Positions 2,777 through 60,299 of a stretch of DNA of 64,000 nt are shown here, one piece after another. The notes beneath the pieces are model-generated. The model searched no databases and was not told the origin of the DNA. It worked only from the letters and a program-made list of their open reading frames with translations. The first letter of the stretch is position 1. Each line of letters opens with the position of its first letter. The DNA comes from Eledone cirrhosa (taxonomy: Eukaryota). Both the position numbers and the translations under genes were made by a program. The DNA is taken from positions 411,370,001-411,434,000 of the forward strand of contig OZ024740.1 of assembly GCA_964016885.1 (NCBI GenBank). The letters run 5' to 3'.

Positions 2777-2845
2777 TATATATATATATATATATAGTAA
2801 GAATATTTTCGAAACAGTGAGCGGGTTTGAAATTATTATAAATGA

Positions 2846-3306
<461 letters not shown>

Positions 3307-4806: not shown

Positions 4807-4843
4807 TCTTAAGGTTTCGGGCGTTAGTCCTTCATCAGTCAGA
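4807..4843 (-). ncRNA. Minimal hammerhead ribozyme, degenerate, in a short repeat at ~4727-4915
   Basis: Minus strand UCUGA-CUGAUGA-AGGACUAACGCCC-GAAA-CCUUA-AGA; same family as 9264-9299. Confidence 0.55.
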
Positions 4844-13985: not shown

Positions 13986-14297
<312 letters not shown>

Positions 14298-15386: not shown

Positions 15387-15455
<69 letters not shown>

Positions 15456-15561
15456 TTGTAATAAAATGAAAACGGAATTTCATTTCTCACTCTTAATACG
15501 GCACTTACTTAAAAGGAAAGAATATACTTTCGAACGTTCAACTATCTGGCAGATGGGTATA

Positions 15562-15602
15562 CGGTGCTGATGATAGCTAACAAGCTTGAAACTAGTACAT
15601 CG
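15562..15602 (+). ncRNA. Type I minimal hammerhead ribozyme, intact core
   Basis: CGGUG-CUGAUGA-U-AGCU(AACA)AGCU-U-GAAA-CUAG-UA^CAUCG; 5-bp stem I, palindromic stem III ACUAGU, GUA cleavage site. Confidence 0.9.
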
Positions 15603-15751
15603 TTCCTGTGTCAGTGTTGAACAAAAAGGTGACGTGGTTGCCTTAACACCGTGCGGCATAAATTCAGGCTGTTCAGTTTGTTTACAAACGAACAAAGCGG
15701 GCGCTATAATAAGCGTCCGCTAAACTGATGCGTACATATATGTATGTGTAC

Positions 15752-15816
<65 letters not shown>

Positions 15817-15970
15817 TGCTACTGAAAGTCTGTATACATATATGTATGTACGTATACATACATACTTACATTTAAGTAAGTGCCGTACTAAGAGTGAGAA
15901 ATGAAATTTCGTTTTCATTTTATTACAACTCATCGTTTTCGGTGCGGCTGACCGATTTAACTCACTCGAT

Positions 15971-16018
15971 ATGCAAATTAGGCTGCTCAGCCGTTAATTT
16001 TCATAAGGAAAGCATATA
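15971..16018 (+). promoter_or_regulatory. Octamer plus PSE-like/TATA-like block upstream of the HHR
   Basis: ATGCAAAT at 15971, then TAATTTTCATA-AGGAAAGCATATA; the same block occurs at 36889-36936 (-) in an otherwise divergent family. Confidence 0.5.
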
Positions 16019-16053
16019 CTTTCGAACGTTCAGCTATCTGGCAGATGGGTATA

Positions 16054-16094
16054 CGGTGCAGATGATAGCTAACAAGCTTGAAACTAGTACATCG
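16054..16094 (+). ncRNA. Second R1 hammerhead with core mutation (CAGAUGA)
   Basis: Identical to 15562-15602 except U4>A. Confidence 0.8.
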
Positions 16095-16246
16095 TTCCTG
16101 TGTCAGTGTTGAACAAAAAGGTAACGTGGTTGCCTTAACACCGTGCGGCATAAATTCAGGCTGTTCAGTTTGTTTACAAACGAACAAAGCGGGCGCTATA
16201 ATAAGCGTCCGCTAAACTGATGCGTACATATATGTATGTGTACCTG

Positions 16247-16318
<72 letters not shown>

Positions 16319-16371
16319 TGCTACTGTACGTCTGTATACATATATGTATGTACGTATACATACATACTTAC

Positions 16372-16404
<33 letters not shown>

Positions 16405-19463: not shown

Positions 19464-19536
<73 letters not shown>

Positions 19537-20091
19537 GTCTGAAAACAGACTAAATAAAGATGGCGTAGAAAATACAAAATACAATGTAACGGGAGGAAAC
19601 AATAGCACCACTGACGATGTTGCAGATGTGCAACGAAAGAACTTTGATAAACTATATATATATGTGTTTGTGTCTATATTGTATCTGTATTATTTTTGAC
19701 CGTTGGTCAGTCAATGGCAACATTGAGGACCGAATAAATTAGATTACCGATATAAAAGACACAGGAGCGAAAACCAACCAAACAGTGAGTGTGTTCTGTT
19801 ATTAATTCTGGCAATATTACACAAATATGACCCTCCCCAAGTATAACAATATTTGTTTCGACACACGATTTCATATAAAAAACCTCGCAAAACTAATTCA
19901 TCGCCGTTATATATATATATAGGAAAATGTTTAACCCGACGGCAGACCTCAAGCCGTTTCGACGACCCGTCGAAACGGCTTGGGCTCTCCCGTCGGGGTT
20001 AAAAATGTTCCTATTACTCACTTAACTACTCTAAGTATTGAGTACTCTGGTGCGTTATGGTCCATCTGGTTCCTTACCACACCTCTTTCGT

Positions 20092-22889: not shown

Positions 22890-23090
22890 AAGGTAGAACG
22901 CCGGAAAGTAATATCCGTAGTAGTAGAGTAATCAGACCATGGGACGAGTTTGGTACAAGTAGTAACACAACAGTTAGTTCACCATACCGAGAACAATTGT
23001 TTCACCTCATGCGGATCTTCAGCCCGAAGATCCGCATGAGGTGAAACAATTGTTCTCGCTATGGTGAACTAACTGCTGTGTTGCTACTTC
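22890..23090. mobile_element. Fold-back insert (64-bp arms 22957-23020 / 23026-23089) containing a hammerhead
   Basis: Near-perfect hairpin with a 5-nt loop AGCCC; TA flanks. Confidence 0.9.
22989..23025 (-). ncRNA. Minimal hammerhead ribozyme at the fold-back apex
   Basis: GGG-CUGAAGA-U-CC(GCAUGA)GG-U-GAAA-CAAUUG-UU^CUC; palindromic stem III ACAAUUGU. Confidence 0.7.
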
Positions 23091-23105
23091 TATATATATA
23101 TATAT

Positions 23106-25572
23106 AGCAAATACATGATGGGAGAGAGGAAAATCTTCAACGCTCACATGATGATGTGGACCGACATCCTAAAGCCAAGCAGACGCACTGCCAACAACTT
23201 CCAGGCGTCTAATAATGGCATACCACCCTTGTAATACAGTCGACGACTCGACAACAGGACAAGCAACAATACCTGTATGCGGAGCAAATATAGCTAGCAA
23301 CTACAGGATCTCCTACTTCACTCAATGGTTATACGCCCCATAATCAAGATGTCCCCAGATGTATGTGACAGTACAGAGGACCTCCTCATCAGAATCAGTG
23401 AGTGCAACAAAAATAAAAACCTATCCAACTGCATAATAGGCAGTATGGATGTGGTATCACTGTACCCATCCATTAACATTGATTTTGCTGTGGGAAAATG
23501 TGTGGAGATGATCATTGAGAGTGAGGTGGAGTTCTGCGACGTCGACACAGACGAACTAGGCCTCCTACTTAGACTTACCTATGACACTGACTACCTAGAC
23601 AGCCATTACGTTTCTGTCCCAGTAGACCCATAAGACGTAGACCCCCACCGTAACCTCAATGGCAAAAAAGACTCCCATGGGAAGGTGGATTGGGTGGACC
23701 AAAGCTATACGGACCTCTCAAAACAATGATCAGGTAAGAAAAATGGCCGCACATGCAATATGGGCTAGTATCAAAACTACCCTAAAGGGCCACATATTCA
23801 AGTTCAACGAGAAGATCTACACCCAAAATGAGGGAGCAGCCATTGGCGTCAGCATAGCTGGTGACGTTGCCAACCTTTTTATGGTATGGTGGGAAAGGAG
23901 ACTTAAAGATCTCCTTAATGAGAGCTCCATAGACCTTATTATGTACTCTCGTTATGTAGGCGACATCAATATAGAAATAAAGACATCCCCACAAGAGAGT
24001 ACTAACAAGTTTGATTTAGAACGTAGCACAATGGAAAGCATCCAGCAGATAGCTAATTCCATACACCAGAGTATAACTGTAACTATCGACTACCCTTCCA
24101 AACACCCTAACAATGGACTACCTGTATTAGACACGGAACTCTGGATTAACACTATAGACGAGAGACGCCAAATTCTCCACTCACACTATGCTAAACCCAT
24201 GGCCTCCAAATACCTGATACTCAAAAACTCAGCAATGTCCAGTAGTGCTAAGTTTAATATTCTGATCGCAGACTTGGTACGAGTGATGAAGAATGTGTCC
24301 CGCATGTGCGACCCAACAGAAATGGAAAGACACATCCAACACTTCATCAACCGCATGCAGTTCTCTGGCTACAAACAAAGAGACAGAATCAGAGTATACG
24401 AAGGAGCCACGGAGAAGTAGAAGACCCTCATAGAACTGGACATGAAAGGAATTTGCCCATTATACAGGAGAAAATCATGGAATAGCTTAGATAGGGCTAG
24501 ACATAAGATAGGGAAAGCCACCTCATGGTACGACAACCAGAGATACCAGATTGTCATCTTTATGGACGCTACCCCTGGAGGGAAATTAGCTAAACCAGTG
24601 TAGTAAGGTCCTGAGAAAGACCCACTTAAAGATTAAGGTGGTAGAAAATCCAGGAACCACCATAAAATCCCTGATCAGCAAAACCTACCCTTTTAAGAAA
24701 ACCCACTGTACTAATAGGAAATGTATCATATGTAAAGTAAACCTCCGGATAAACTGTAAAACTAGAAACGTAGTCTATAGCATAAGATGTACAGAGGGTA
24801 CTTGCAGAAACATGACAACAACATAATAGGCGAGACAGCTCGTAGCATAGGTGAAAGGATAGACCAACACTGGGGGGAACTAAAAGGACAAAAAACGGTT
24901 CAGTACTACACGACCATGCCAGACAACAATACGACGGTAAAATAGACAACATAGAAATTAGAATAATATCTAAACATAGAAATGACCCAGCAGATAGGCA
25001 AATCAGAGAAGCAAGCGAAATAGAACTTAGAAGACCAAGGCTAAACAGAAAAATTGAATGGAATAACAACAACACCCAAACAAACAATACTGACCTAAGA
25101 GAAGTATAAATAAATAAATAAATAAATACATACACAAGCACAATAACAGCAAACACATATAAACACACACTAGTAAACTAAGCCAGAATACAATAACCAA
25201 TACACAGTCACCCAAACACGAACACACATCAAACACTACACACACGCGCAAACGCATGCGCAGAGAAGACAAAAAAAATAAATAAATAAACAGACTAAAT
25301 AAAGATGGTGTAGGCATACAATACAACGGGAGGAAACATAATAGCACCACTGACGATGTTGCAGATGTGCAACGAAAGAACTCTGTTAGACTATATATAT
25401 GTGTTTGTGTCTATATTGTATCTGTATTTTTGACCGTTAGTCAGTCAATGGTAATATTGAGGTCCGAATATATTAAATTAACCGATATAAAAGACAGAGA
25501 AGCGAAAACTAACCAATGTTATTAATTCTAGCAATATTATTACACACATATGACCCTCCCCAAGTATAACAA
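23106..25572 (+). mobile_element. PLE family B, 5'-truncated defective copy (RT plus GIY-YIG)
   Basis: RT motifs SMDVVSLYPSI, GAAIGVSIAGDVANLFM, RYVGD; Zn/EN region NCKTRNVVYSIRC..GETARS; highly similar to ~48523-51093; HHR-like motif at 25346-25387. Confidence 0.92.
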
Positions 25573-25606
25573 TATATATATATATATATATATAAAGAAT
25601 ATAAAC

Positions 25607-25695
<89 letters not shown>

Positions 25696-26422
25696 AAGAT
25701 TTGAATGGATACAGTTTAGTTGAAAGGAATTTATTGACACGTGTTTCTATAACAGTTACATAACCTAAAACAGCTGCTATCTACAAACTTTTAGTTATGC
25801 AGACATTCAATATTTCAATGTTATTATTTACTGTCATTTCATCAGAATAATATTACTGAGGACCTATTTAGTTTTTATAGAGAATATTAGGAGGGAGGGG
25901 TGAAGTTGTTAGAAGAATAGTTGAAGGAGTGGTTTTTCGATAGCAGTGAGAATTCTTGGTGGCAGTGAGTAATTAGATTCCCATCTGTTGTTTTGACATT
26001 TTTTATAGAATATATTATTGGTTATTTTTCTAAATCTATAGAAGGATTAGAGATAGTAAAGATATGCGTGGTTGGTTTTGTGTTTGCACTTAATTAACAT
26101 TCAGACTTAAATTTTTCTTTCAAGTGCACGTATCCTTTCACCCACGCATTCACACACAAATATATTTGCACACCTCTACAAAATACATATACTCACAATT
26201 CACATATTCATACTTACATATATATACACATGCATACACATATATGTACACACATGTATTCATGTACATACTTACGCGCTCATGTGTATACATTTTCATA
26301 CTCAACTTATCTTTATATACACACGTATAGACACACACATATATACATACTTACTCTAGTCCATGTGTACACACATACACATACATACACATCTATATAC
26401 ACATATATACATACATATATAC

Positions 26423-26517
<95 letters not shown>

Positions 26518-27245
26518 TACACATACATACACATATACATATACATATATATATACATATATATAAGCACTTTAATACATGAATACACTTACATCTAACT
26601 ATACACATCAAACATATATATATATTTACTTATTTATATACATTTTCACATATATATACATACTTATGGACGTTTTTAGACACATTCATTATCGCATATT
26701 TGCACCTATTCTCATCAGCATATCTTTCCATTATTAGTGTGGTAATTTAAGGTTATTAATATATGTTGAGAAGAGATTGTTTTTATATTTTTCTAACTAG
26801 ATTAAGGTTTATATAGTTGGGGGATGTCCTTCTTTTATGTAATATTCGGCTTGTAGTGGGAAAAAAGGGTTTTAGTTCTGTGACGGCAGAATAATGTTCG
26901 TTCAATTCTGTTATTCAGCAGTTTCTTCTTGTGTGTGATTATGTAATAAATCTCAAGATTACACAATTTGCAGAAATTTTGGCTCCTGGAAAAGCTTTGG
27001 GTTTTAGCTAATTTCTCCCATTTTAGGGTAAACTTTTGATCGCTATCCCTGAGCGTCCAAGCTTTTTCTGCTAAAGTTGTTACATTTCTTTGGCTCTGGT
27101 GTTTTATTGAGTAAGAATGCCTATACAATCGAGATTTAAACGATAATCTACTGTGTGTAATATTTATATTACAACACAACGGAAAATACTGTATATTTAC
27201 CTCCTGTAAAGTCGAGCAACCCACACAGCAAACGCAACCACAACA

Positions 27246-29581
27246 ATGGAAAAACACTACCTGGATATGTCACTCAAAAACATACCAACCCAAGGTAGAA
27301 AGGAATATTTATTGAGTATGATTCAAAAAACTAATGAATTCATTCGACGTGTCAGGTGGAAAACGCTCCACTATGATAGAAGCCGTATGAACTCAACATT
27401 AGAAAGTGGTGTAAACAACAAATTCGGTTTTAGGACTTGTAAAAACCCACCCACCAACCCACTATTAGATGCATTTGAGCAGGACCTTATGAACTTAATC
27501 CTTAAAATTAAATTCAAAGGACGCAACACCAACAGCAAATTACAGAAAGATATAAAAAAACTACTGGACGACCTTAAAAACACCAAAGGAATTGTAGTAA
27601 AAGCGGACAAAACATCAAACCTGTACACTATGGATTGCACTGCATACAACAACTTCATTCGAAAAGAATTACATAAAAAATATAGAAAAACGAGTGAAGT
27701 AACCCTTAAGCACATCAATGATGAGGCATGCGAAATAGTGAAAAATCTCGGAATCGAAGATAGGACAGGACCACTCTTACCGGCGGTAGCCACCTTCAAT
27801 CTTAAGGACCACAAGGTAAACTTTGATAATGACCCTAAAATTAGATTAATCTGCCCCTCTAAATCAGATATAGGTAAAATAAGCAAATATATCTTAGATA
27901 GAATCATCCCCCAAATTAAGGCTAAGGTTAACATTAAACTCTGGGGGAAGACCCAAGAAGCAATAAGATGGTTTAATAGCATTAGCAATAAGAATAAATC
28001 TAAGTTTATCTAATAAATCTAAGTTTGATATCGATGAATATTACTCATCGATATCACCTGAAACTTTGAATAGAGCCATTAAGTTTGCTAAGGATAACTC
28101 TGACCTTACAAACGATGAAATTAAGATTATATTAGAAGCTAGGAAAACTATAGTCAAATTTGAGAACAGTTATTGGGTACGTAAAGATAGACCCTCTAAC
28201 TTTGACATAACAATGGGCTCTAACGATTCGGCGGAAATAACTGATATTGTGGGGTTATTTATCGCCTTTAGACTCCAGGAAAAATTCAGCAATCTCCACG
28301 GCGGAATATACCGCGACGATGTTCTCCTCCTAGCTAAAAACCTTAATAACCAAAAACTAGAAAAACTACGCAAAGATATAAGAAAACTACTACTCGAAAT
28401 AGGACTAACTATAACATATGAATACAACCTTAAAGTAGTTAACTTCCTGGATGTCACACTCAATTTAAACTCTGGTTTGATTAAACCGTTTCATAAATTG
28501 AATGAAAATCTCAAATACGTAAATGTTGGGTCTAACCACCCCATCTCTATAATTAAATCTATCCCTAAAAATATTTCCCTTAGAATCTCGGGTCTATCTT
28601 CTAACATACAAGTTTTTAAGGAACACGCCGAGTACTACGATAACGCCCTTAGTAAAGCAGGCTACCTCAACAAAATAGAGTACATAGATGGGAACAATCA
28701 AAACACCCAAAATAAATCCCACATAGGTAGATATAATAACACAACACCAAACCACACTTACTACCATAGTATGCACACCAGTAAACCAACAAACAAAACT
28801 AATAGAAAGCGATGCAAAGAGTACTTATGGTATAACCCCGAATACAATAGTTCCATTAGTACAAATTTACCAGTACTCTTCTTTAAAATAATTAAAAGAC
28901 ATTTTCCCACATCACACAAATACCACAAAATCCTAAACCCTACCACTATAAGACTGTCATACTCTACAGCGTTAAACCTTGAACAACACATAAAAAAGAT
29001 CAATACTAGAAGGTTAAACGAAAACACTAAGAACTTAAGTACAAAGAACACAAAAAAAAACAGTAGACAATACACTACAGAACATAAATAAACCACACCT
29101 AAGTTCGTCCGCAATACTACTCCAGAGAAAACCCAACGTACACAACTGTAACTGCACCTATCCTGACAACTGCCCCCTCGGCAATAACTGCCTGGAAAAA
29201 AAAAAAATTATTTATAAGTGTACCATTAAATCCGGAGGCAACGAGTGGTATTACGTGGGATCAACGGCAACATCGTTTAAATCTCGATTGTATAGGCATT
29301 CTTACTCAATAAAACACCAGAGCCAAAGAAATGTAACAACTTTAGCAGAAAAAGCTTGGACGCTCAGGGATAGCGATCAAAAGTTTACCCTAAAATGGGA
29401 GAAATTAGCTAAAACCCAAAGCTTTTCCAGGAGCCAAAATTTCTGCAAATTGTGTAATCTTGAGATTTATTACATAATCACACACAAGAAGAAACTGCTG
29501 AATAACAGAATTGAACGAACATTATTCTGCCGTCACAGAACTAAAACCCTTTTTTCCCACTACAAGCCGAATATTACATAA
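27246..29581 (+). pseudogene. PLE-A ORF: reverse transcriptase plus C-terminal GIY-YIG endonuclease, frameshifted
   Basis: KADKT, FDIDEYYSSI, TMGSNDSAEI, GIYRDD, VNFLDVT, CNC-x5-CPLGNNCL, IIYKC...YYVGST..FKSR..H, CKLCNLE; breaks at ~28010 (15-bp duplication), ~29060 and ~29200 (A-runs). Confidence 0.92.
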
Positions 29582-29690
29582 AAGAAGGACATCCCCCAAC
29601 TATATAAACCTTAATCTAGTTAGAAAAATATAAAAACAATCTCTTCTCAACATATATTAATAACCTTAAATTACCACACTAATAATGGAA

Positions 29691-29738
29691 AGATATGCTG
29701 ATGAGAATAGGTGCAAATATGCGATAATGAATGTGTCT
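29691..29738 (+). ncRNA. Degenerate hammerhead-like motif in the PLE-A 3' UTR
   Basis: AGAUAUG-CUGAUGA-GAAUA..UAUGC-GAUA..UGUGUCU; the GAAA box is mutated. Confidence 0.35.
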
Positions 29739-29898
29739 AAAAACGTCCATAAGTATGTATATATATGTGAAAATGTATATAAATAAGTAAATATATATAT
29801 ATGTTTGATGTGTATAGTTAGATGTAAGTGTATTCATGTATTAAAGTGCTTATATATATGTATATATATATGTATATGTATATGTGTATGTATGTGTA

Positions 29899-29997
<99 letters not shown>

Positions 29998-30571
29998 GTA
30001 TATATATGTATGTATATATGTGTATATAGATGTGTATGTATGTGTATGTGTGTACACATGGACTAGAGTAAGTATGTATATATGTGTGTGTCTATACGTG
30101 TGTATATAAAGATAAGTTGAGTATGAAAATGTATACACATGAGCGCGTAAGTATGTACATGAATACATGTGTGTACATATATGTGTATGCATGTGTATGT
30201 ATATGTAAGTATGAATATGTGAATTGTGAGTATATGTATTTTGTAGAGGTGTGCAAATATATTTGTGTGTGAATGCGTGGGTGAAAGGATACGTACACTT
30301 GAAAGAAAAATTTAAGTCTGAATGTTAATTAAGTGCAAACACAAAACCAACCACGCATATCTTTACTATCTCTAATCCTTCTATAGATTTAGAAAAATAA
30401 CCAATAATATATTCTATAAAAAATGTCAAAACAACAGATGGGAATCTAATTACTCACTGCCACCAAGAATTCTCACTGCTATCGAAAAACCACTCCTTCA
30501 ACTATTCTTCTAACAACTTCACCCCTCCCTCCTAATATTCTCTATAAAAACTAAATAGGTCCTCAGTAATA

Positions 30572-30627
30572 TTATTCTGATGAAATGACAGTAAATAATA
30601 ACATTGAAATATTGAATGTCTGCATAA
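30572..30627 (+). ncRNA. Hammerhead-like motif in the PLE-A pLTR
   Basis: CUGAUGA-AAUG...CAUU-GAAA-UAUU(G)AAUG-UC^; stems II and III good, GUC site, stem I poorly paired. Confidence 0.55.
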
Positions 30628-30838
30628 CTAAAAGTTTGTAGATAGCAGCTGTTTTAGGTTATGTAACTGTTATAGAAACACGTGTCAATAAATTCCTTTC
30701 AACTAAACTATATCCATTCAAATCTTTCTATTTTTCTCCGGATTACTTTTGGAACTACAACTGGAACCGTCGAGCAAACTCTACGTGAGCTGATAATCTA
30801 CTGTGTGTAATATTTATATTACAACACAACGGAAAATA

Positions 30839-30881
<43 letters not shown>

Positions 30882-35932: not shown

Positions 35933-35972
<40 letters not shown>

Positions 35973-36449
35973 GATTCAGGACCCCGACGGCTGAGCTTCG
36001 GCCGTTCCGACAGATAGATTCGAACTCTGCTACTCCAAGTATCGAGTACTCTGGTGGATTATGGTATAGTCGGTTTTTACCACATCCTATCTGAAAACAA
36101 GAACAGAATAGGAATACAAATTCCTAATATAACATTTACTGCTTCCACACCAACTGCGAAGTCCCTAACGACTCTCCACGTGAAAGCTAAAATATAGGCT
36201 TAACGCAGACACCGCAAAACACACACACGCACACACACTCATTCACACATGTTCACACAAACGCACAAATATATATAAATGCATATATATATATATATAA
36301 CAACTAGAAATTGATTAACATAAATAAACATGAATAATCACAGAAATATATATATAACACATGTTTATATCTATCTAGGGCGGGTAAAATTCCTGAGATA
36401 ATTTAATATAGAAATATATATATATACACATATACATACACACACACAA

Positions 36450-36508
<59 letters not shown>

Positions 36509-36799
36509 CAAATAACGAAACGAAATTAAATTTCGTTTCGTTTGTAACTCACTTTTGTATGACTGACGCTTAAACAATTAAGTTAAAAATGTACATCTAC
36601 ATATGCATACTGAAATACTAGTGTGTATATGAATACACACACGTATACATATGTAGGTGTACCAAGTCTTTCACTGGTCGCTTTACAGTGAGCGGCCCAG
36701 CTATTCTGTATGTAAACACACAGACAAACCGGTTTTTAGAGTCATACTGGTTTTTCGGGGGAACACCTTCCCCCTATTCTCCAGAAAGCTAGACAAGGA

Positions 36800-36842
36800 A
36801 TATTGAACTAGTTTCGTTGTTGTTACAACTCATCAGCAATAT
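36800..36842 (-). ncRNA. Type I minimal hammerhead ribozyme, intact core
   Basis: AUAUUG-CUGAUGA-GUUG(UAACAA)CAAC-GAAA-CUAG-UU^CAAUAU; perfect 6-bp stem I, 4-bp stem II, palindromic ACUAGU. Confidence 0.93.
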
Positions 36843-36888
36843 TTACCTATCTACCGGCCTTTCTGGAGAATTGTAAAAGCACATATCG

Positions 36889-36936
36889 TTATATGCTTTT
36901 TCTATGAAAATTAGTAGTGGGCAGATTAATTTGCAT
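36889..36936 (-). promoter_or_regulatory. Octamer plus PSE-like/TATA-like block upstream of the R2 HHR
   Basis: Minus strand ATGCAAAT-N15-TAATTTTCATA-GAAAAAGCATATAA. Confidence 0.5.
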
Positions 36937-37511
36937 AGAGTGTGAGTACGCACCGGTTCAGCGGAGACGATAAAAACAAATAACGAAACGAAATTAAATT
37001 TCGTTTCGTTTGTAACTCACTTTTGTATGACTGACGCTTAAACAATTAAGTTAAAAATGTACATCTACATATGCATACTGAAATACTAGTGTGTATATGA
37101 ATACACACACGTATACATATGTACGTGTACCAAGTCTTTCACTGGTCGCTTTACAGTGAGCGGCCCAGCTATTCTGTATGTAAACACACAGACAAACCGG
37201 TTTTTAGAGTCATACTGGTTTTTCGGGGGAACACCTTCCCCCTATTCTCCAGAAAGCCAGACAAGGAATATTGAACTAGAGAATAGGGGGAAGGTGTTCC
37301 CCCGAAAAACCAGTATGACTCTAAAAACCGGTTTGTCTGTGTGTTTACATACAGAATAGCTGGGCCGCTCACTGTAAAGCGACCAGTGAAAGACTTGGTA
37401 CACGTACATATGTATACGTGTGTGTATTCATATACACACTAGTATTTCAGTATGCATATGTAGATGTACATTTTTAACTTAATTGTTTATATATATATAT
37501 ATATATATATG

Positions 37512-37624
<113 letters not shown>

Positions 37625-38315
37625 GTATATGTATATATATATATTTCTATATTAAATTATCTCGGGAATTGTATCCCCCCCCCCAGATAGATATTAAATT
37701 TGTTATATATATATTTATATATATATATGCATTTATATATATTTGTGCGTTTGTGTGGACATGTGAATGAGTGCGTTTGTGTGCGTGCGTGTGTTTTGCG
37801 GTGTCTGCGTTAAGCCTATACTTTAGCGTTCACGTGGAAAGTGGTTAGGGACTTCGCAGTTGGTGGAAGCAGTAAATGTTATAATAGGAATTTGTATTCC
37901 TATTCTGTTCTTGTTTGCAAGATTTTCGAATGGATTTCGCGAGTAAGAGATATTTGGTTATATTACTTGCCTTGGCTTTCCGTCTGTCCCCCTTGTGTCA
38001 CCACTTCTATACGAAAATGCACCATTCTAGAGTGAACCGCTGGTCAACATTGTGACATATATTCTATCGACGTGGATGTATCACGACACTATGTAATCTT
38101 TCATATTCTTCTTTCGCCAATCATTTTTGTCTGCGTCTATATTTCCTGGAATTTGCTCGAGGTTATATATGAATATTTTCTGCATATATTCTGAACGACA
38201 ATTGCAGGAAGGGAGAAAAGCATCTTTCTGTGATTATTTTTAACTAATGGGATCGGGAAGGGGGTCAGAATGAGAATAACGATTATACAACGAGGAATAT
38301 AATGACGAGGTCGTA

Positions 38316-45498: not shown

Positions 45499-45539
<41 letters not shown>

Positions 45540-45542
<3 letters not shown>

Positions 45543-48500
45543 TTGGGGAGGGTCATATTGGAGTAATATTGCCAGAATTAATAACAGAACACACTCACTG
45601 TTTGGTTGGTTTTCGCTTTTCGATTCTATGTCTTTTATATCGGTTAATTTAATTGAATTTATTCGGTCCTCAATGTTGCCAAAATTACAGATACAATATA
45701 GACACAAATACATATATATAGTCTATCAAAGTTCTTTCGTTGCACATCTGCAACATCGTCAGTGGTGCTATTGTTTCCTCCCGTTGCATTGTATTTTCTA
45801 CGCCATCCTTATTTAGTCTGTTTATATGTTTATTTATTTTTTTTTTTTTCTTCTTTGCGCATACGTTTGCGCGTGTGTGTATAGTATTTTGTTTGATGTG
45901 TGTTCGTGATTGGGTGACTGTGTATTGGTTAATGTATTCTATCTTTACTAGTGTGTGTTTATATGTGTTTGTTGTTATTGTGCTTGTGTATGTATTTATT
46001 TATTTATCTATATATTTATTTATTTATTTATTTTTTAATTTATACTTCTCTTAGGTCAGTGTTGTTTGGTTGGGTGTTGTTGTTATTCCATTCATTTTTT
46101 CTGTTTAGCCTTGACCTTCTAAGTTCTATTTCACTGGCCTCTCTGATTTGCCTATCTGCTGGGTCATTTCTATGTTTATATATTATTCTAATTTCTATGT
46201 TGTCTATGTTACCGTCGTATTGTTGTCTGGCATGTTCGTATAGTACTGAACCGTTTTTTCGTCCTTTTAGTTCCCCTCCCCCAGTGTTGGTCTATCCTTT
46301 CACCTATGCTACGAGCTGTCTCGCCTATGTATGTTGTTGTCATGTTTCTGCAAGTACCCTCTGTACATCTTATGCTATAGACTACGTTTCTAGTTTTACA
46401 GTTTATCCGGGGGTTTACCTTACATATGATAATTTCCTATTAATAGGAAATGTATCATAACACTATACACACACGCAAACGCATGCGCAAAGAAGACAAA
46501 CAAAAAAATAAATAAACATATAAACAGACTAAATAAAGATGGCGTAGAAAATACGATGCAACGGGAGGAAACAATAGCACCACTGACAATGTTGCAGATG
46601 TGCAACGAAAGAACTTTGATATACTATATATATGTGTTTGTGTCTATATTGTATCTGTATTTGTGACCGTTGGTCAGTCAATGGCAACATTGAGGACCGA
46701 ATAAATTAAATTAAATTAACCGATATAAAAGACATAGAAGCGAAAGGCGAAAACCAACCAAACAGTGAGTGTGTTCTGTTATTAATTCTGGCAATATTAC
46801 ACAAATATGACCCTCCCCAAGTATAACAATATTTGTTTCGACACACGATTTCATATAAAAAAAACTCGCAAAACTAATGCATCGCCGTTATGGCATTAGC
46901 TTGTGCCAAGCTGAAAGGTTATTGAAAGACACTGTTTTCTGTTATATAAAAACTACAATAACAGCAGAACAAATCCGCTTCTTAAAACACTGTGTTTCCT
47001 CCAAAATCTACACAACAAACATATCAAAACATGTAAATAATTTATTATTGAACAAAACACAAGCTGAACGACTAAAACACACAATAACAGTTAATATGAA
47101 AAGAACAACATACACAAAAGTTAACGAACTTTACAGACAGAAACGCATTAACGGTAAGGAAGTCCGAAATCTCACCACAACAAACGAGAGGAATGACTTC
47201 ATGAGCGTCATCCGACGTGAAACGAAATACGCCCGAAACGAATGCAATAGGCATATCAATAAGAAATTAGAATGGATGAATAAGAATAAACTAGAAGAAA
47301 GAAAAATAGAATATTCTCAAAAATACCCAGATGAAATCAACAATATCCGTATGACTGATGTAAAACTACCGGAAGAATTTACCAATGACCACACAGTAAA
47401 TATGTATGGGAACACTTTAATCAGTGAACAAGAACAACAAATCCTGCAGCTACCACCAAAATTTGCTATCTACAAAAAGATTAACCCTATTGAGTGCAAA
47501 ACGGAGCTGGAAAAGTGTTTCACAAAAATACGTTAGAATGCAAAAGTAAACAACAACAACAACTATACGGACAACAACAACAATAATAACGGTAGTAGTA
47601 ATATAAACAATAACTCTGAGTATAGAAATAACAGCTATAATAGTAATAGTTATAAAAATAACAATAACAGGAGAGTGAGAAATAGTAATAATGGTAATAA
47701 TATTAACGATAGACAGAACAACAACAACAACCACAATAATAATAATAATAGAAACATTAACTACAGACACAGCAGCAGCGACCACAGTAGTAATAACGGT
47801 AACAATACAAATAACAACAACAACCACACTGGTAATAATAGAAATAATACATGTAGCAACATTAATGATAGACACAACAAAAACAAGAAAGATAATAAAA
47901 TTAACAACCACAATGGTAGAAATAACAGTAACAACAACAATAACAGTGGAGAAAACAACAACAATACATCTAACAATCACAGCAACAATACATCTAGCAA
48001 TCATAACGACAATACATCTAACAATCACAGCAAGAATACATCTAGCAATCATAACAATAATAATAATGCTAATGATAGGAACAACAACAACCACCATAAT
48101 AACAATAATAGCAACACACACAACTATGACGATAGATATAATGACAACGCCTTAGAGAAACTATTCTTCAACCCAGCTGACAAAACATATAAGATGGGTA
48201 ATATCTATCCTACGAGGTCACCCTTTAATAAAAGAGTTTGCATACCACAACACATAGATGACGAGACAGAGGCACAGTTCACCATAGCTAGAAATAAGAT
48301 TAGACAAATAGTAGACCGGTATACTAAGAGACAGAGCAGACCAGAGGTCCAACATCTTGGGAGGAAACCTGTATAAGGCTTGGTTAGCCTCAAGCAGCGC
48401 ACAAGGGATGGTGAGGTAGTATGTCTACCCACGGATAAGTCTGGTAGGATGTCAATAGACAGCATGCCGAACAACATCAAGGCTATGCAACCCCACATCA

Positions 48501-51137
48501 CCAACACGAGCGAAATTGCACAGCAAATACATGATGGGAGAGAGAAAATCCTCAACACTCACATGGTGATGTGGATTGACATCCTAAAGCCAAGTAGAGG
48601 CACTGCCAACAACTTCCAGGCGTCCAACAATAGCATACCACCCTTGTATGGGCTCCGCAAAGACCACAAGACAGACGACGACCCGACAACAGAACCACCA
48701 ACAAGACCCGTATGCGGAGCAAATATAGTTAGCAACTACAGGAACTCCTACTTCACTCAATGGTTATACGCCCCATAATCAAGATGTCCCCAGATGTATG
48801 TGACAGTACAGAGGACCTCCTCAGCAGATTCAGTGAGTGCAACAAAAACAGGAACCTATCCAACTGCATAATAGGCAGCATGGATGTGGTATCACTGTAC
48901 CCATCCATTAACATTGATTTTGCTGTAGAAAAAATGTGTGGAGATGATCATTGAGAGTGAAGTGGAATTCTGTGACGTCAATACAGACGAACTGGGCCTC
49001 CTACTTAGACTTCGTACGACACTGACTACCTAGACAGCCATGACCTTAGACGTTTCTGCCCCAGTAGACCCATAAGAGGTAGACCCCCCAACCATAACCT
49101 CAATCGCTAAAAAGACTCCCATGGGAAGGTAGATTGGGTGGACCAAAGCTATACGGACACCCCAAAATAATGATCAGGTAAGAAAAATTGTCGCACATGC
49201 AATAGGGGCTAGTATCAAAACTACCCTAAAGTGCCACATATTCAAGTTCAACGAGAAGATCTACACCCAAAATGAGGGAGCAGCCATTGGCGTCAGCATA
49301 GCTGGTGACGTTGCCAACCTTTTTATGGTATGGTGGGAAAGGAGACTTAAAGATCTCCTTAATGAGAGCTCCATAGACCTCATCATGTACTCTGGTTACG
49401 TAGACGATATCAATATAGTTATAAGAACATCCCCACAAGAGAGCACTAAAAGTTTGATTTAGAACGTAGCACAATGGAAAGCATCCAGCAGATAGCTAAT
49501 TCCATACACCAGAGTATAACTGTAACTATGAACTACCCTTCCAAACACCCTAACAATGGACTACCTGTATTAGACACGGAACTCTGGATTAACACTATAG
49601 ACGAGAGAGCCCAAATTCTCCACTCGCACTATGCTAAACCCATGGCCTCCAAATACCTGATACTCAAAAACTCAGCAATGTCCAGTAGTGCTAAGTTTAA
49701 TATTCTGATCGCACACTTGGTACGAGTGATTAAGAATGTGTCCCACATGTGAGACCCAACAGAAATGGAAAGACACATCCAACACTTCATCAACCGCATG
49801 CAGTTCTCTGGCTACAAACAAAGAGACAGAATCAGAGTATACGAAGGAGCCACGGAGAAGTAGAAGACCCTCATAGAACTGGACATGAAAGGAATTTGCC
49901 CATTATACAGGAGCAAATCATGGAATAGCTTAGATAGGGCTAGACATAAGATAGGGAAAGCCACCTCATGGTACGACAACCAGAGATACCAGAGTGTCAT
50001 CTTTATGGACGCTACCCCTGGAGGGAAATTAGCTAAACCAGTGTAGTAAGGTCCTGAGAAAGACCCACTTAAAGATTAAGGTGGTAGAAAATCCAGGAAC
50101 CACCATAAAATCCCTGATCAGCAAAACCTACCCTTTTAAGAAAACCCACTGTACTAATAGGAAATGTATCATATGTAAAGTAAACCTCCGGATAAACTGT
50201 AAAACTAGAAACGTAGTCTATAGCATAAGATGTACAGAGGGTACTTGCAGAAACATGACAACAACATAATAGGCGAGACAGCTCGTAGCATAGGTGAAAG
50301 GATAGACCAACACTGGGGGGAACTAAAAGGAAGAAAAAACGGTTCAGTACTATGCAAACATGCCAGACAACAACACGATGGTAACATAGACAAAATAGAA
50401 ATTAGAATAATATCTAAACATAGAAATGACCCAGTAGATAGGCAAATCAGGGAGGCCAGTGAGATAGAACTTAGAAGGCCAATGCTAAACAGAAAAAAAT
50501 GAATGGAATAACAACAACACCCACACAAACAACACTGATCTAAGAGTAGTATAAATAAAAATAAAAAAAAAAATAAATAAATAAATAGATAAATAAATAA
50601 ATACATACACAAGCACAATAACAACAAACACATATAAACACACACTAGTAAAGATAGAATACATTAACCAAATCACAGTCACCCAATCACAAACACACAT
50701 CAAACAAAACACTATACACACACGCAAACGCATGCGCAAAGAAGACAAAAATATAAATAAATAAATAAACAAATAAATAAACATATAAACAGACTAAATA
50801 AAGATGGCGTAGAAAATACAATGCAACGGGAGGAAACAATAGCACCACCGACGTGGTTGCAGATGTGCAACGAAAGAACTTTGATAGACTATATATATGT
50901 GTTTGTGTCTATATTGTATCTGTATTTTTGACCGTTGGTCAGTCAATGGCAACATTGAGGACCGAATAAATTAAATTAAATTAACCGATATAAAAGATAT
51001 AGAAGCGAAAAGCGAAAACCAACCAAACAGTGAGTGTGTTCTATTATTAATTCTGGCAATATTACACAAATATGACCCTCCCCAAGTATAACAATATTTG
51101 TTTCGACACACGATTTCATATCAAAAACCTCGCAAAA
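45540..51137 (+). mobile_element. PLE family B, full-length structure: inverted arm (45540-46444), 5' pLTR (46459-46873), ORF, 3' pLTR
   Basis: Direct repeat at 46459-46873 / 50708-51137; inverted copy of ~50155-51088; small palindromic junction at 46426-46458; TA flanks. Confidence 0.95.
46877..50502 (+). pseudogene. PLE-B ORF (N-terminal domain, Asn-rich insert, RT, GIY-YIG) with multiple stops and frameshifts
   Basis: LQLPPKFA, PTDKSGR, LYGLRKDHK, RPVCGA, DVVSLYPSI, YVDDI, LPVLD, VVY..IGETARS..R..QH, RQIREA, LNRK. Confidence 0.92.
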
Positions 51138-51226
51138 GTATGTATATATATATATATAAATATATATATATATAAATATATATATATATAGCCAATCTAG
51201 TCCCTTACGATATGAACACATATATG

Positions 51227-51791: not shown

Positions 51792-51827
<36 letters not shown>

Positions 51828-51831
<4 letters not shown>

Positions 51832-52030
51832 GGAAAAAATGAAACGAAATTTCATTTCCCACTCTTAGTATGGCTGTTACTTAAATATAAGTATGTATAC
51901 GTACATACATATATGTATAGTATACAGACGTACAGTAGTATGTATATATATATACATACATGCACACATATATATATGTACGTATGGATTCACCGAACAT
52001 TTATTATAATGCTCGGTGTGTTTGTCCCAT
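51828..52030 (-). mobile_element. Diverged 3' fragment of the R1 family
   Basis: AAATGAAACGAAATTTCATTTCCCACTCTTAGTATGGC...ACTTAAAT matches 15462-15512 and continues into the R1 body. Confidence 0.75.
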
Positions 52031-52077
52031 AAGAAAATTTATTCTTAAAGCTTGCTAGATTTGATCTTGTATATGGT

Positions 52078-52145
<68 letters not shown>

Positions 52146-53036: not shown

Positions 53037-53099
53037 GTTTGGATCTAGGCGTAGTTTTGTTGCATTCTCGATGCAACAAAACTACGCCTAGATCCAAAC
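53037..53099. repeat. Perfect 29-bp hairpin with a 5-nt loop
   Basis: GTTTGGATCTAGGCGTAGTTTTGTTGCAT-TCTCG-ATGCAACAAAACTACGCCTAGATCCAAAC. Confidence 0.95.
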
Positions 53100-56603: not shown

Positions 56604-56905
56604 AGAATGAAGAGAGAAGCAGGCGGACGGACAGAGAAGAGGGGGGAAAAAGTAAAACTTAAAAAACTAAAACTAAGTCAGACATTCGAACACTACATTA
56701 CAATGAAACTTATGCTTATTCATTTCTGGGGCCCTTTCTGCCTGTGTGTTTGTTTGTTTATGTGTGTTCGTATACAGCGTGGTGATAATGCCACACAAGG
56801 GCCAAGTGGGATGGCGGATCCACAGATGGCTATGTAAACATACATTCGCCAATCCTCGATAAGAGTGTTTAAATATCGAACATAAACAGTTCGAATAACG
56901 GTGAA

Positions 56906-59900
56906 ATGGAGACTAGAACGTCATGTGACAGACTCTCACCCAACAGGTGCCCCCTGGCTCAGCAGCAGGAACCTGACTGTCAACCAAATACTGCTGATGT
57001 TGGAGGAAGGAGAAGAAGGAAAGGGGCCAGAACCAACTGGACGAAAGAATTGAATATAACTGTTATGCAATGCTACCTGAAAAGTAACCCCAAGGAGAGG
57101 GGCTACAGGAGACGGATGCATAACATCTGGAACGAGATTGGTTTATTTAAATTAGATGAACAAAAATTGGCCGGGCAGGCTCGGGTAATAAGAACTAATG
57201 GGTGGATAAGCGAGCTGGAACTGGAGGAACTGAGCAGAGAGAATGGCTTGGAGATGGCGGGTGTAGTATGCCAGACAAGCGAGCCGGTGGGAAATGAAGG
57301 TGAGGAGGTCCTGAGAACGGAGGAACCACCCGAAGCAGACAATGATCTGAGTACTGAGATAAATAATACCTGGAACAGAGATACGGCCACTGAGGAGATG
57401 AATGCTGACGGGCTAGGACAAGATTCGGTTGACATCCTAAATTTAGTGGTAGATGAATTGAACAATGATAGTGGGAGACCTATGAACCTAAGATTTGTAG
57501 ACAGGAAAAAGTTAAAAGAAACAACAGCTAAGGTAAACAAAGTCATCCCATACCTTGAGGCGAGGAGCCTTCACCAGTGCAACAATATCCTCAGAGCAAC
57601 AGCAAATACGGTGAGGAAACTACTTGGTATAAAAGCGAGAGGAAACAACAGACAAGAAAGAGCAGAGCCGTGGTGGAAGAAGCGACTGAGTGGGCAAATC
57701 GGGGAAATGAGAAATGACATAGGAAAGCTTGAGTCACTACTGAATGGGACACTAAAAAACATAGGCACTAAAAATAGACTGGAAATAAAATACAAAACTA
57801 GGAGTAAAAAGCTAAATATTATCATAGAGGAATTGAAGCAACGCATTGTAGCAAAGAGTGCAAAAATCAGGCGATACGAGAACAGAGTCAGTCAGTATAA
57901 ACAGAACCGCATGTTCGACAACAACCAGAAGATGCTGTTTGGACAGCTTGAGGGCAAAGAAAGAGGCAACGACTTGATCCCTGGGGCGGAGCAAACTAAA
58001 ACATTCTGGAGAGGAATATGGGAGCAGGATGTTAGACACAATGCCCAGGCAGGGTGGATTGAGACAGTACAGAGGGAGATCGGTGAGCAGGCACAGCAAC
58101 AGACTGATTTGAGTATCACAGTTGAAACTCTTAAGGGACAAGCCAAAAAACTAACCAACTGGAAATCGCCAGGCCCAGATGGTGTGCAGGGGTATTGGAT
58201 TAAACATCTAACATCCCTCCACCCGAAGCTGACGGCCATGTTCAATGACTGCTTGGTGTCGGGTGAGGTGCCAGAGTGGTTGACAAAAGGTACCACAGTT
58301 CTGATAATGAAAGACCGAATCAAGGGTAATGATGCTACCAACTATAGACCTATCACATGTCTGCCCGTAATGTGGAAACTGTTGACGAGCATTGTGTCTG
58401 AGGAAATCTACCATCACCTCCACACAAACAACTTGTTACCGGACGAACAGAAAGGATGCCGAAAGAAGTCACGTGGTACAAAGGACCAGTTGCTTATTGA
58501 TAAGATGGTAATGGGGAATTGCAGGAGGAGACACACTGATCTTGCCATGGGATGGATAGACTACAGAAAGGCATTTGACATGGTGCCTCATTCCTGGATC
58601 ACCAAAAGCCTGGAGATCTTCAGGGTGGCGGATAACATCAGACAGTTGCTAGGCAGGAGTATGGGGTCCTGGGAGACAGAGTTGACATCAACTGGAGTAT
58701 CCTTGGGAAGCGTGAAGATCAAGAGAGGTATCTTCCAGGGAGATAGCCTGTCCCCTCTGTTGTTTGTCCTTGCCCTGATGCCCTTGACCATTATGCTGCG
58801 AAAAGTGAGAGCAGGATACAAGTTGGGAAGGGGAGAGCTTACCATCAATCACCTCCTCTTCATGGACGATCTTAAGCGCTTCGGGAAAAGTGAGAAGGAG
58901 TTGGATGTGCTTGTTGACACTGTCCGTATTTTCAGCAGTGATATATGTATGCAGTTTGGTATTGGTAAATGTGGAGTCATTGTGATGAAGAGGGGTAGGT
59001 TGAGCAGAAGTAACGGGATCCAGATACCAACAGGTGAGATGATAAAGGAAATTGACTCTGAGGAAGGATACAAGTATTTGGGCGTTCTGGAGGCTGATGG
59101 CATAAAGAACAAAAAAATGAAGGAATTGTTAAGAACTGAATACATTCGGAGAGTAAGGAGCGTATTGAAGTCACATCTGAACAGCAGAAATGCCATAAGC
59201 GCAGTAAATTCCCGAGCTGTGTCTATTATTAGGTACAGTGCGGGAATTCTGAGATGGAATGTTGCTGAACAGAAAGAAATGGATAGGAAGACTAGGAAGC
59301 TATTGACTATCTACAACATGTTCCACAAGAGGAGTGATGTCGATAGACTCTACCTAAGGAGATCTGAGGGTGGAAGAGGTCTTATCAGCATAGAGGACTG
59401 TGTTCAGATGGAGAAAAACAACCTATACAAATACGTGACCTATAGTAAGGAGCCAATGTTCAGAGCTGTACTGAAGGAGGGGACAGTAGGCCAGGGGATG
59501 TCCAGGGAGGAAATAACATCAAGGAGGAAGAGCAGCCTTAAGGGAAAACCCCTTCATAGTACCTTCTTTGAGAAAACTAAATTTAGAGATCCACAGACAT
59601 GGAACTGGTTGAGAAGAGGAGACCTCAAAAAGGCTACAGAAGGAATGCTAATGGCTGCGCAGGAGCAGGCCCTCAAAACGAAGTGGTTGAAGCACCATAT
59701 CTACAAGGAGGAGGCCAGCCCACTGTGCAGGATCTGTGGAGAGAGAGAGGAGACTGTGGCTCACATTGTGTCCGAGTGTAAACACCTAGCCCAGACCCAC
59801 TATAAGGGCTGGAGACACGATGTGATGGGCAGGGTGATCCACTGGCACCTGTGCAAAGTAAACAATCTACCACATTCTGAGAAATGGTATGAGCATAGGC

Positions 59901-60299
59901 CAGAGGCGGTGATGGAGAACAATCAGGTGAAGGTGCTGTGGGATTTTAGGATACAGACGGACAAAAAAATTGGAACACAATAGACCTGACCTGGTGGTTG
60001 TGGACAAAGAAAAAAGATCGTGCCTGATTGTGGATGTGGCCTGCCCGTTCGACACGAGAGTGCAAGAGAAGGAGAGGGAGAAAATTAACCGATACCAGGA
60101 CCTAAAGTGGGAGGTGAAAAGGATTTGGAACTGCCATGAAGTCAAAGTGATCCCGATTGTCATAGGCGCACTGGGGACTATCTCCAAAAGTTTCCAGGGA
60201 TGGTTAAAGAAAATCGGCCCCTTCACGCTTTTTGGAACGCTTCAAAAGGCATGCTTGCTTGGAACAGCAAGAACCCTCCGATACGTCCTGAATATCTGA
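56906..60299 (+). CDS. R4/Dong-like non-LTR retrotransposon ORF (RT, CCHC knuckle, restriction-like endonuclease) with one frameshift
   Basis: WKSPGPDG, NYRPITCL, IDYRKAFD, GIFQGDSLSP, FMDDLK, YKYLG, CRICG..ETVAHIVSEC, RHD, RPD..VDV..K; frameshift in the A7 run at 59963-59969; (TAA)n tail to ~60431. Confidence 0.95.

Follow-up and report, generated by a model that had tools for sequence, protein, structure and literature searches.

We find that the insert at 36503-37489 of the 64-kb window, the whole stretch of DNA analysed here, has the layout that is the published signature of Penelope-like elements (PLEs), for which self-priming has already been proposed, and that by its sequence it appears to be a hammerhead-bearing member of that architecture. 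A Penelope-type enzyme likely placed the insert in a TA run, and we give a probability of about 0.5 to a course in which an uncut multi-unit RNA would be copied from one end of the unit (terminus A), with a stop in the folded second ribozyme, a fold-back of the cDNA and resolution at a second end (terminus B). The sequence-only reading had placed the turn of the reverse transcriptase (RT) at the ribozyme's own cleavage site; we find a turn directed by the cut to be unsupported, and the nearness of the junction to the cut is likely due to chance or to stalling on folded RNA, not to a cut RNA end.

Anatomy of the insert

The insert is composed of one and two-thirds copies of a short unit plus an inverted copy, set between (TA)n runs, with the following features.

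36406..36502, no strand: left (TA)n-rich target flank, from the sequence and a TRF period-2 array at 36406-36504
36503..36970, minus strand: unit 1, the complete, full-length 468-nt monomer, with no overlapping ORF of at least 150 aa
36503..36570, minus strand: 68-nt 'tail', unit positions 1-68, bounded on the left by terminus A (36503) and on the right by terminus B; missing from the inverted arm and so present at one end only
36514-36542: 13-bp hairpin in the tail (z -3.2)
36776..36871, minus strand: extended stem I, a 13-bp perfect inverted repeat, 36776-36788 / 36859-36871
36799..36843, minus strand: predicted minimal type I hammerhead ribozyme, from motif scan and fold
36971..37279, minus strand: unit 2, 5′-truncated (positions 1-309), with a second predicted cut at 37273/37274
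37250..37278, no strand: palindrome spacer, 29 nt between the exact arms, 23 nt counting two pairs past a mismatch
37279..37489, plus strand: inverted 5′-truncated copy, unit positions 279 down to 69, ending at terminus B
37488..37652, no strand: right (TA)n-rich target flank, from the sequence and tandem repeats

Unit 2 (309 nt) differs from unit 1 at 2 of 309 sites, unit positions 154 and 288, so that the two near-identical units described by the sequence-only reading stand, coordinates included, and its view of the insert as fairly young is supported. The inverted arm (211 nt) is the reverse complement of unit positions 69-279, with no differences from unit 2 and one from unit 1. Its outer end at terminus B shares TA microhomology with the flank, and no target-site duplication is discernible at the insert flanks. 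Unit 2 ends 6 nt beyond the second predicted cut, within the ribozyme core, and is thus left without a complete ribozyme. The 468-nt unit is non-coding and low in GC (0.33 in its 2-kb bin), and the ORF list, which covers frames of at least 150 aa, holds no RT plus GIY-YIG ORF of an autonomous PLE within it.

The window as a whole is AT-rich and dense in microsatellites. The insert occupies the TA-rich centre of an older inverted repeat (36092-36414 / 37644-37919, 92% over 190 nt), which is perhaps an earlier fold-back insert and whose left extension, 35937-36084, resembles 13998-14145.

Predicted hammerhead and cut site

The hammerhead lies on the minus strand, so the RNA would correspond to the minus strand and the plus strand to the predicted cDNA. 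It combines a perfect 7-bp stem I, CUGAUGA, a 5-bp stem II, GAAA and GUU^ with a minimal, palindromic stem III of two pairs, i.e., a type I hammerhead with the conserved core and short palindromic helix III found in retrozymes. The predicted GUU^ cut falls between plus-strand positions 36805/36806 in unit 1 and 37273/37274 in unit 2, corresponding to unit position 303/304. The ribozyme call has three bases, namely a motif scan, the fold, and a match to what has been published on metazoan minimal hammerheads (PMC4209133); an Rfam scan of the window at the gathering threshold returns no matches. Metazoan minimal hammerheads are described as requiring a dimer and cleaving weakly (PMC4209133), and the palindromic stem III appears suited to dimer cleavage, with ribozyme activity itself a prediction. 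The ribozyme is enclosed in a hairpin domain of ~96 nt that the extended stem I closes and whose predicted RNA fold has -38.4 kcal/mol (z -3.15). With a single complete ribozyme, the insert differs from the retrozyme definition of an 'active' locus, which has two consecutive complete ribozymes (bioRxiv 10.64898/2026.07.22.740005), a statement that holds for this copy and passes no judgement on the family.

The inversion junction and the template

The forward arm does continue beyond the second predicted cut, as the sequence-only reading had noticed, and within the 2-6 nt that it allowed, a switch 5-6 nt past the cut is the simplest, because the A at 37278 fits the forward arm only; a switch at 2-4 nt needs an extra mutation. 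The inverted copy into which the sequence switches is likewise real, but the CTAG/CTGG microhomology proposed for the switch reduces to one exact base (G) or to three matches in four. Fold-back sites of three in four, with a loop of up to 30 nt, exist at 349 of 468 unit positions, and we reject this microhomology as the sign of a special site because such sites are common. A forced CTAG/CCAG snap-back costs +4.6 kcal/mol, and the best fold of the nascent end is at -0.1.

If the template had been a self-cleaved RNA and its 5′ end the turning point of the RT, the cDNA should stop at 37273. It runs 5-6 templated nt further, into RNA sequence upstream of the cut, and passes the first cut site at 36805/6 seamlessly. 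This indicates that the template was uncut, circular or rejoined at both sites, and that something other than a free RNA 5′ end stopped the cDNA. A circular RNA, the other template put forward for the turn, offers no end to turn at. The more general part of the proposal fares better: the architecture points to a retrozyme-like hammerhead unit inserted by reverse transcription, and the arm may well be a self-primed fold-back, as a derived base is common to the arm and unit 2.

Both breakpoints (positions 279 and 309) fall inside the ~96-nt hairpin domain of the extended stem I. Among perfect fold-back sites in the unit, the outer 13 bp of this stem (positions 274-286/357-369) rank first, level with the 13-bp tail hairpin, and they share the register observed at the junction.

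Distance of junctions from the cut

One breakpoint is expected within 6 nt of the cut by chance in 13/468 or 2.8% of cases, and simple arithmetic on the 468-nt scale gives ~16% for one such junction among six, and 20% for eight. Other inversion junctions do not cluster at cuts: five more that bear a ribozyme could be placed, and 0 of 5 lies within 50 nt of the cut, in a comparison across units of different length, in which copies recognised by their core are preselected for having passed the cut, distances in one family are taken from the core, and four short fold-back inserts without a ribozyme (1966-2778, 2797-3054, 22893-23092 and 53037-53099) are excluded from the count. The junction of the sister insert at 15451-16376 is 85 nt past its predicted cut, the coding element at 25691-30845 turns ~178 nt short of a predicted cut whose position is less certain, and in a third PLE-like family the turns at 46458 and at the 19534 mini-hairpin lie upstream of the core by ~125 and ~68 nt, respectively, as measured from the core and not from the cut. 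The sole opposite-strand joint among the matches listed for public run X23 connects position 245 of the unit, 58 nt from the cut, with position 468, 165 nt from it; the joint is backed by 5 reads with 3 starts and ends exactly at terminus A.

The family in public sequencing runs

Four public runs (X1, X2, X5 and X23) out of 24 listed were compared with unit 1; their contigs drop rare variants, the runs may be from other individuals, and summed contig depth is not taken as copy number. The family is abundant, with 968 X1 contigs matching unit 1, and the tandem joint 36970>36503 is present in three of the four runs (X1, X2 and X23). An X2 contig spanning 36765-36925 crosses the cut unbroken at a depth of 166, compared with 168 for the tandem joint, and X1 depth shows no step at the cut (409k, 373k and 432k in the bins around it). 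The matches listed for the four runs include neither a loose end nor a joint nor an end peak at 36805-36811, and the 36503-37489 insert's own junction is likewise absent from those listed in X1, X2, X5 and X23.

Unit position 69 emerges as a recurrent family terminus, exactly where the inverted arm ends: in five X1 contigs a loose (TA)n end precedes 36571 (position 69), which is terminus B. In an alignment with the sister family, this terminus falls within ~3 nt of the end that lacks the tail (16376), and the tail stands at one end, between two recurrent termini, as in PLE derivatives.

Begin and end peaks in X23 at 36527-36529, 36579, 36909-36912 and 36928 coincide with AATT sites of the RAD library and were set aside as library ends. 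A further X23 peak, at 36710, is not at the cut and is not assigned to AATT. A metagenome scan with a 22-nt primer adjoining the cut gave 0 matches.

Informative alleles

Unit 1 carries G at position 154, and unit 2 and the inverted arm both carry C. Contigs identical to unit 1 across this position are found in X1 (record 4, depth 2385) and X2 (record 13), and no G>C change at 154 is found in X2 or X5, from which we take G as ancestral and the C common to unit 2 and the arm as derived. The arm was therefore copied from the cDNA of unit 2 or from the same RNA unit, or was later corrected against unit 2. At position 288, the T of unit 1 is private, as all depth in the four runs reads C. Unit alleles that differ in this way are easier to reconcile with a linear transcript of several units, made from a donor array that was slightly mixed, than with one circular monomer, unless the changes arose after insertion.

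Possible routes to the insert

From the observed anatomy (unit, ribozyme motif, one-end tail and TA target), the recurrent terminus B and the allele pattern, we infer all of the enzymatic steps of the favoured course. Target-primed reverse transcription would start at terminus A (36503) and proceed for 468 + 309 nt on the plus strand, passing the first cut site without a scar, which would make that site uncut or rejoined. The enzyme would then stop 5-6 nt into the second ribozyme core, within the ~96-nt hairpin domain, and the cDNA end would re-prime ~30 nt back on unit 2 and copy 211 nt; in a last step the arm would be resolved and connected with the TA run at terminus B, where other family copies also end. 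Closeness to the cut would then reflect stalling on structure, or chance, and not a free RNA 5′ end. A fold-back is favoured by other palindromic inserts of the window whose spacers are short (0, 5 and 5 nt); against it stand the poor energetics of a direct CTAG/CCAG snap-back, the spacers of 357, 2127 and 3706 nt in three further inserts of the window, ill-suited to a local snap-back, and the end of the arm at terminus B, for which a second priming event is the simpler explanation. The shared base, moreover, is one site, and a heterogeneous donor array or later correction of the arm could account for it.

Such a second priming event is the core of a possible but rather unlikely alternative, twin priming, in which both target strands would be nicked and one cDNA from terminus A (777 nt) and another from terminus B (211 nt), templated by the same RNA unit or a sibling transcript, would stall at positions 309 and 279 in the hairpin domain and be joined end to end by microhomology. 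Precedent comes from the Penelope enzyme PAc, which is described as cleaving and extending both target strands, with starts at two tail-bounding sites (PMC11167929). The arm ends exactly at terminus B, the inverted piece of the sister insert at 15451-16376 is exactly the tail, position 279 sits 5 nt inside the extended stem, and the long spacers of the other inserts in the window are also in its favour. It requires, however, that both cDNAs copied a unit with the rare C154, and the two arms overlap fully here, unlike in classical twin priming. Twin priming thus explains the outer end of the arm better than a fold-back does, and the shared allele less well.

An amended form of the cut model is unlikely. 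It supposes that a self-cleaved RNA was held together by the long stem I, or was circularised, and that the RT crossed the first nick; at the second nick it would jump to the adjacent 3′ end, copy 5-6 nt, fall off and re-prime, so that the cut sets the breakpoint. The other five placeable junctions (0/5 within 50 nt of the cut) and the interval 36805-36811, where the matches listed show neither loose ends nor joints nor end peaks, both argue against it, one circle would not yield units with different alleles, minimal PLE hammerheads cleave weakly (PMC4209133), and for PAc it is reported that no RNA reads ended at the cut (PMC11167929). Doubtful to the same degree is the broader idea that hammerhead cleavage acts in vivo in Penelope-type integration, with an RT that crosses a nicked, paired ribozyme, often falls off a few bases further on and self-primes, and breakpoints that record the cut.

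Still less probable is a deletion within the core, whereby the cDNA would have reached position 369, the 13-bp inverted repeat would have primed the fold-back, and positions 310-364 would have been skipped or later deleted, with the loss between CTAG and CTGG and the junction near the cut as the deletion edge. The pairing 274-286/357-369 does offer the best perfect fold-back site (13 bp) in the exact register observed, the hairpin of a cDNA ending at 369 folds at -17.4 kcal/mol vs -0.1 for the direct end, and the six bases after the junction read equally well as forward positions 364-369. Two events are required, however, the chance of landing in a 13-nt window is ~1 in 4 by arithmetic with loops up to 60 nt, and we have seen no undeleted example.

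An assembly or library chimera arising from a fold-back read is very unlikely, as the mirror symmetry ends at a TA run and at a terminus that recurs in other family copies, the flanking sequence further out matches its mirror image at only 82-92%, and several other inserts in the window share the layout; such repeats are admittedly hard to assemble (PMC8557442), and the junction is not among the matches listed in X1, X2, X5 and X23, runs whose contigs drop rare variants and which may come from other individuals.

Comparison with known systems

PLE insertions are described as partial tandems, often with an inverted 5′-truncated copy, a 30-40 bp tail at one end and a (TA)n bias, and the same source calls the formation of tandem and inverted insertions and the function of the hammerhead unresolved (PMC8557442); self-priming has been inferred from palindromes at inverted PLE junctions (PMC3846280). 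The insert resembles endonuclease-positive PLEs in its partial tandem, adjacent inverted truncated copy and one-end extension (PMC8557442, Fig. 2 text; PMC3846280; PMC11167929), as well as in the hammerhead within the repeat, the TA-microsatellite target and the palindrome at the junction, and differs from them in having no ORF and a tail of 68 nt vs 30-40. In vitro, a PLE enzyme is reported to prefer unprocessed RNA and not to need hammerhead cleavage (PMC11167929).

Animal retrozymes have been defined and circular templates proposed for them (PMC7229834), and retrozymes are considered to derive from PLE pseudo-LTRs (bioRxiv 10.64898/2026.07.22.740005). The insert shares with the animal non-LTR retrozymes a tandem unit of a few hundred nt, low GC, a type I hammerhead, a palindromic stem III, the lack of coding capacity and high abundance (PMC7229834). 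The word 'inverted' is absent from the accessible text of PMC7229834. An AT-rich, (TA)n target and a partial tandem with an adjacent inverted 5′-truncated copy, as found here, are characteristic of PLE derivatives, and the unit gave no significant match to the repeats of either coding element of the window.

Classical L1 twin priming yields an inverted 5′ segment with short microhomology, and the insert resembles such 5′ inversions in having an inverted 5′ segment and a short microhomology joint. Unlike L1, the arm duplicates sequence of the forward arm, and there is neither a poly(A) tail nor a visible target-site duplication.

The insert is an ordinary example of a described architecture, with some value as test material: a young, abundant and short family with diagnostic alleles would make both open PLE questions testable with a single long-read genome. 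If breakpoints really did accumulate at the cut, this would contradict the in vitro preference for uncleaved RNA (PMC11167929), and a role for cleavage in vivo, if true, would supply a function for the PLE hammerhead, long unexplained, and account for the inverted ends of PLEs. Our search, with most subscription papers and supplements (e.g., Fig. S2 of PMC11167929) outside its scope, found no published plot of PLE or retrozyme breakpoints against the hammerhead cut.

Other elements in the window

A PLE-like coding element at 25691-30845 lies between (TA)n flanks; three frames over 27210-29581 contain RT-like and GIY-YIG-like pieces, and the element also carries a ~115-nt tail and, at 30577, a hammerhead core. 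Its ~1.45-kb inverted arm, 25691-27144, mirrors 29272-30731 with 4 mismatches and 18 gap positions, GAT microhomology is found at the junction, and the element looks young. The GIY-YIG-like stretch is preceded by a Cys-rich linker, a feature assigned to Neptune/Nematis in PMC8557442. Pfam returns 0 families for five ORF pieces of the two PLE-like coding elements and RVT_1 for a sixth ORF unrelated to them, and the Atlas gives RT-like clusters for one PLE-like ORF piece, a lead only.

The sister family of the unit (15451-16376 and 51826-52082) is 78% identical over 59 nt and has a homologous ribozyme and tail; in the 15451 insert the inverted piece is exactly the 62-nt tail, and the core of the second unit is mutated (CAGATGA). 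A third PLE-like family (45538-51140, 23106-25575 and 19534-19910) has five hammerhead-like cores without an obvious stem I partner, a 16-nt snap-back palindrome in the 46425-46459 junction, and a 9-bp mini-hairpin at the start of the 19534 copy. Further hammerhead-like cores on the minus strand, at 4838, 9295, 11846, 17008 and 54505, lie in short microsatellite-flanked segments; the 64-kb window holds 13 core-pattern matches in all, some of them duplicates or due to chance.

Among the four short fold-back inserts, for which spacers are 0, 5 and 5 nt, those at 2797-3054, 22893-23092 and 1966-2778 are TA-flanked with a one-sided tail, and the junction of 1966-2778 contains a duplication of 162 nt, which looks like the result of two turns. 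A 1036-aa stop-free frame at 56873-59983, with RVT_1 (E 5e-22) and a weak zf-RVT match, is a near-intact non-LTR retrotransposon ORF.
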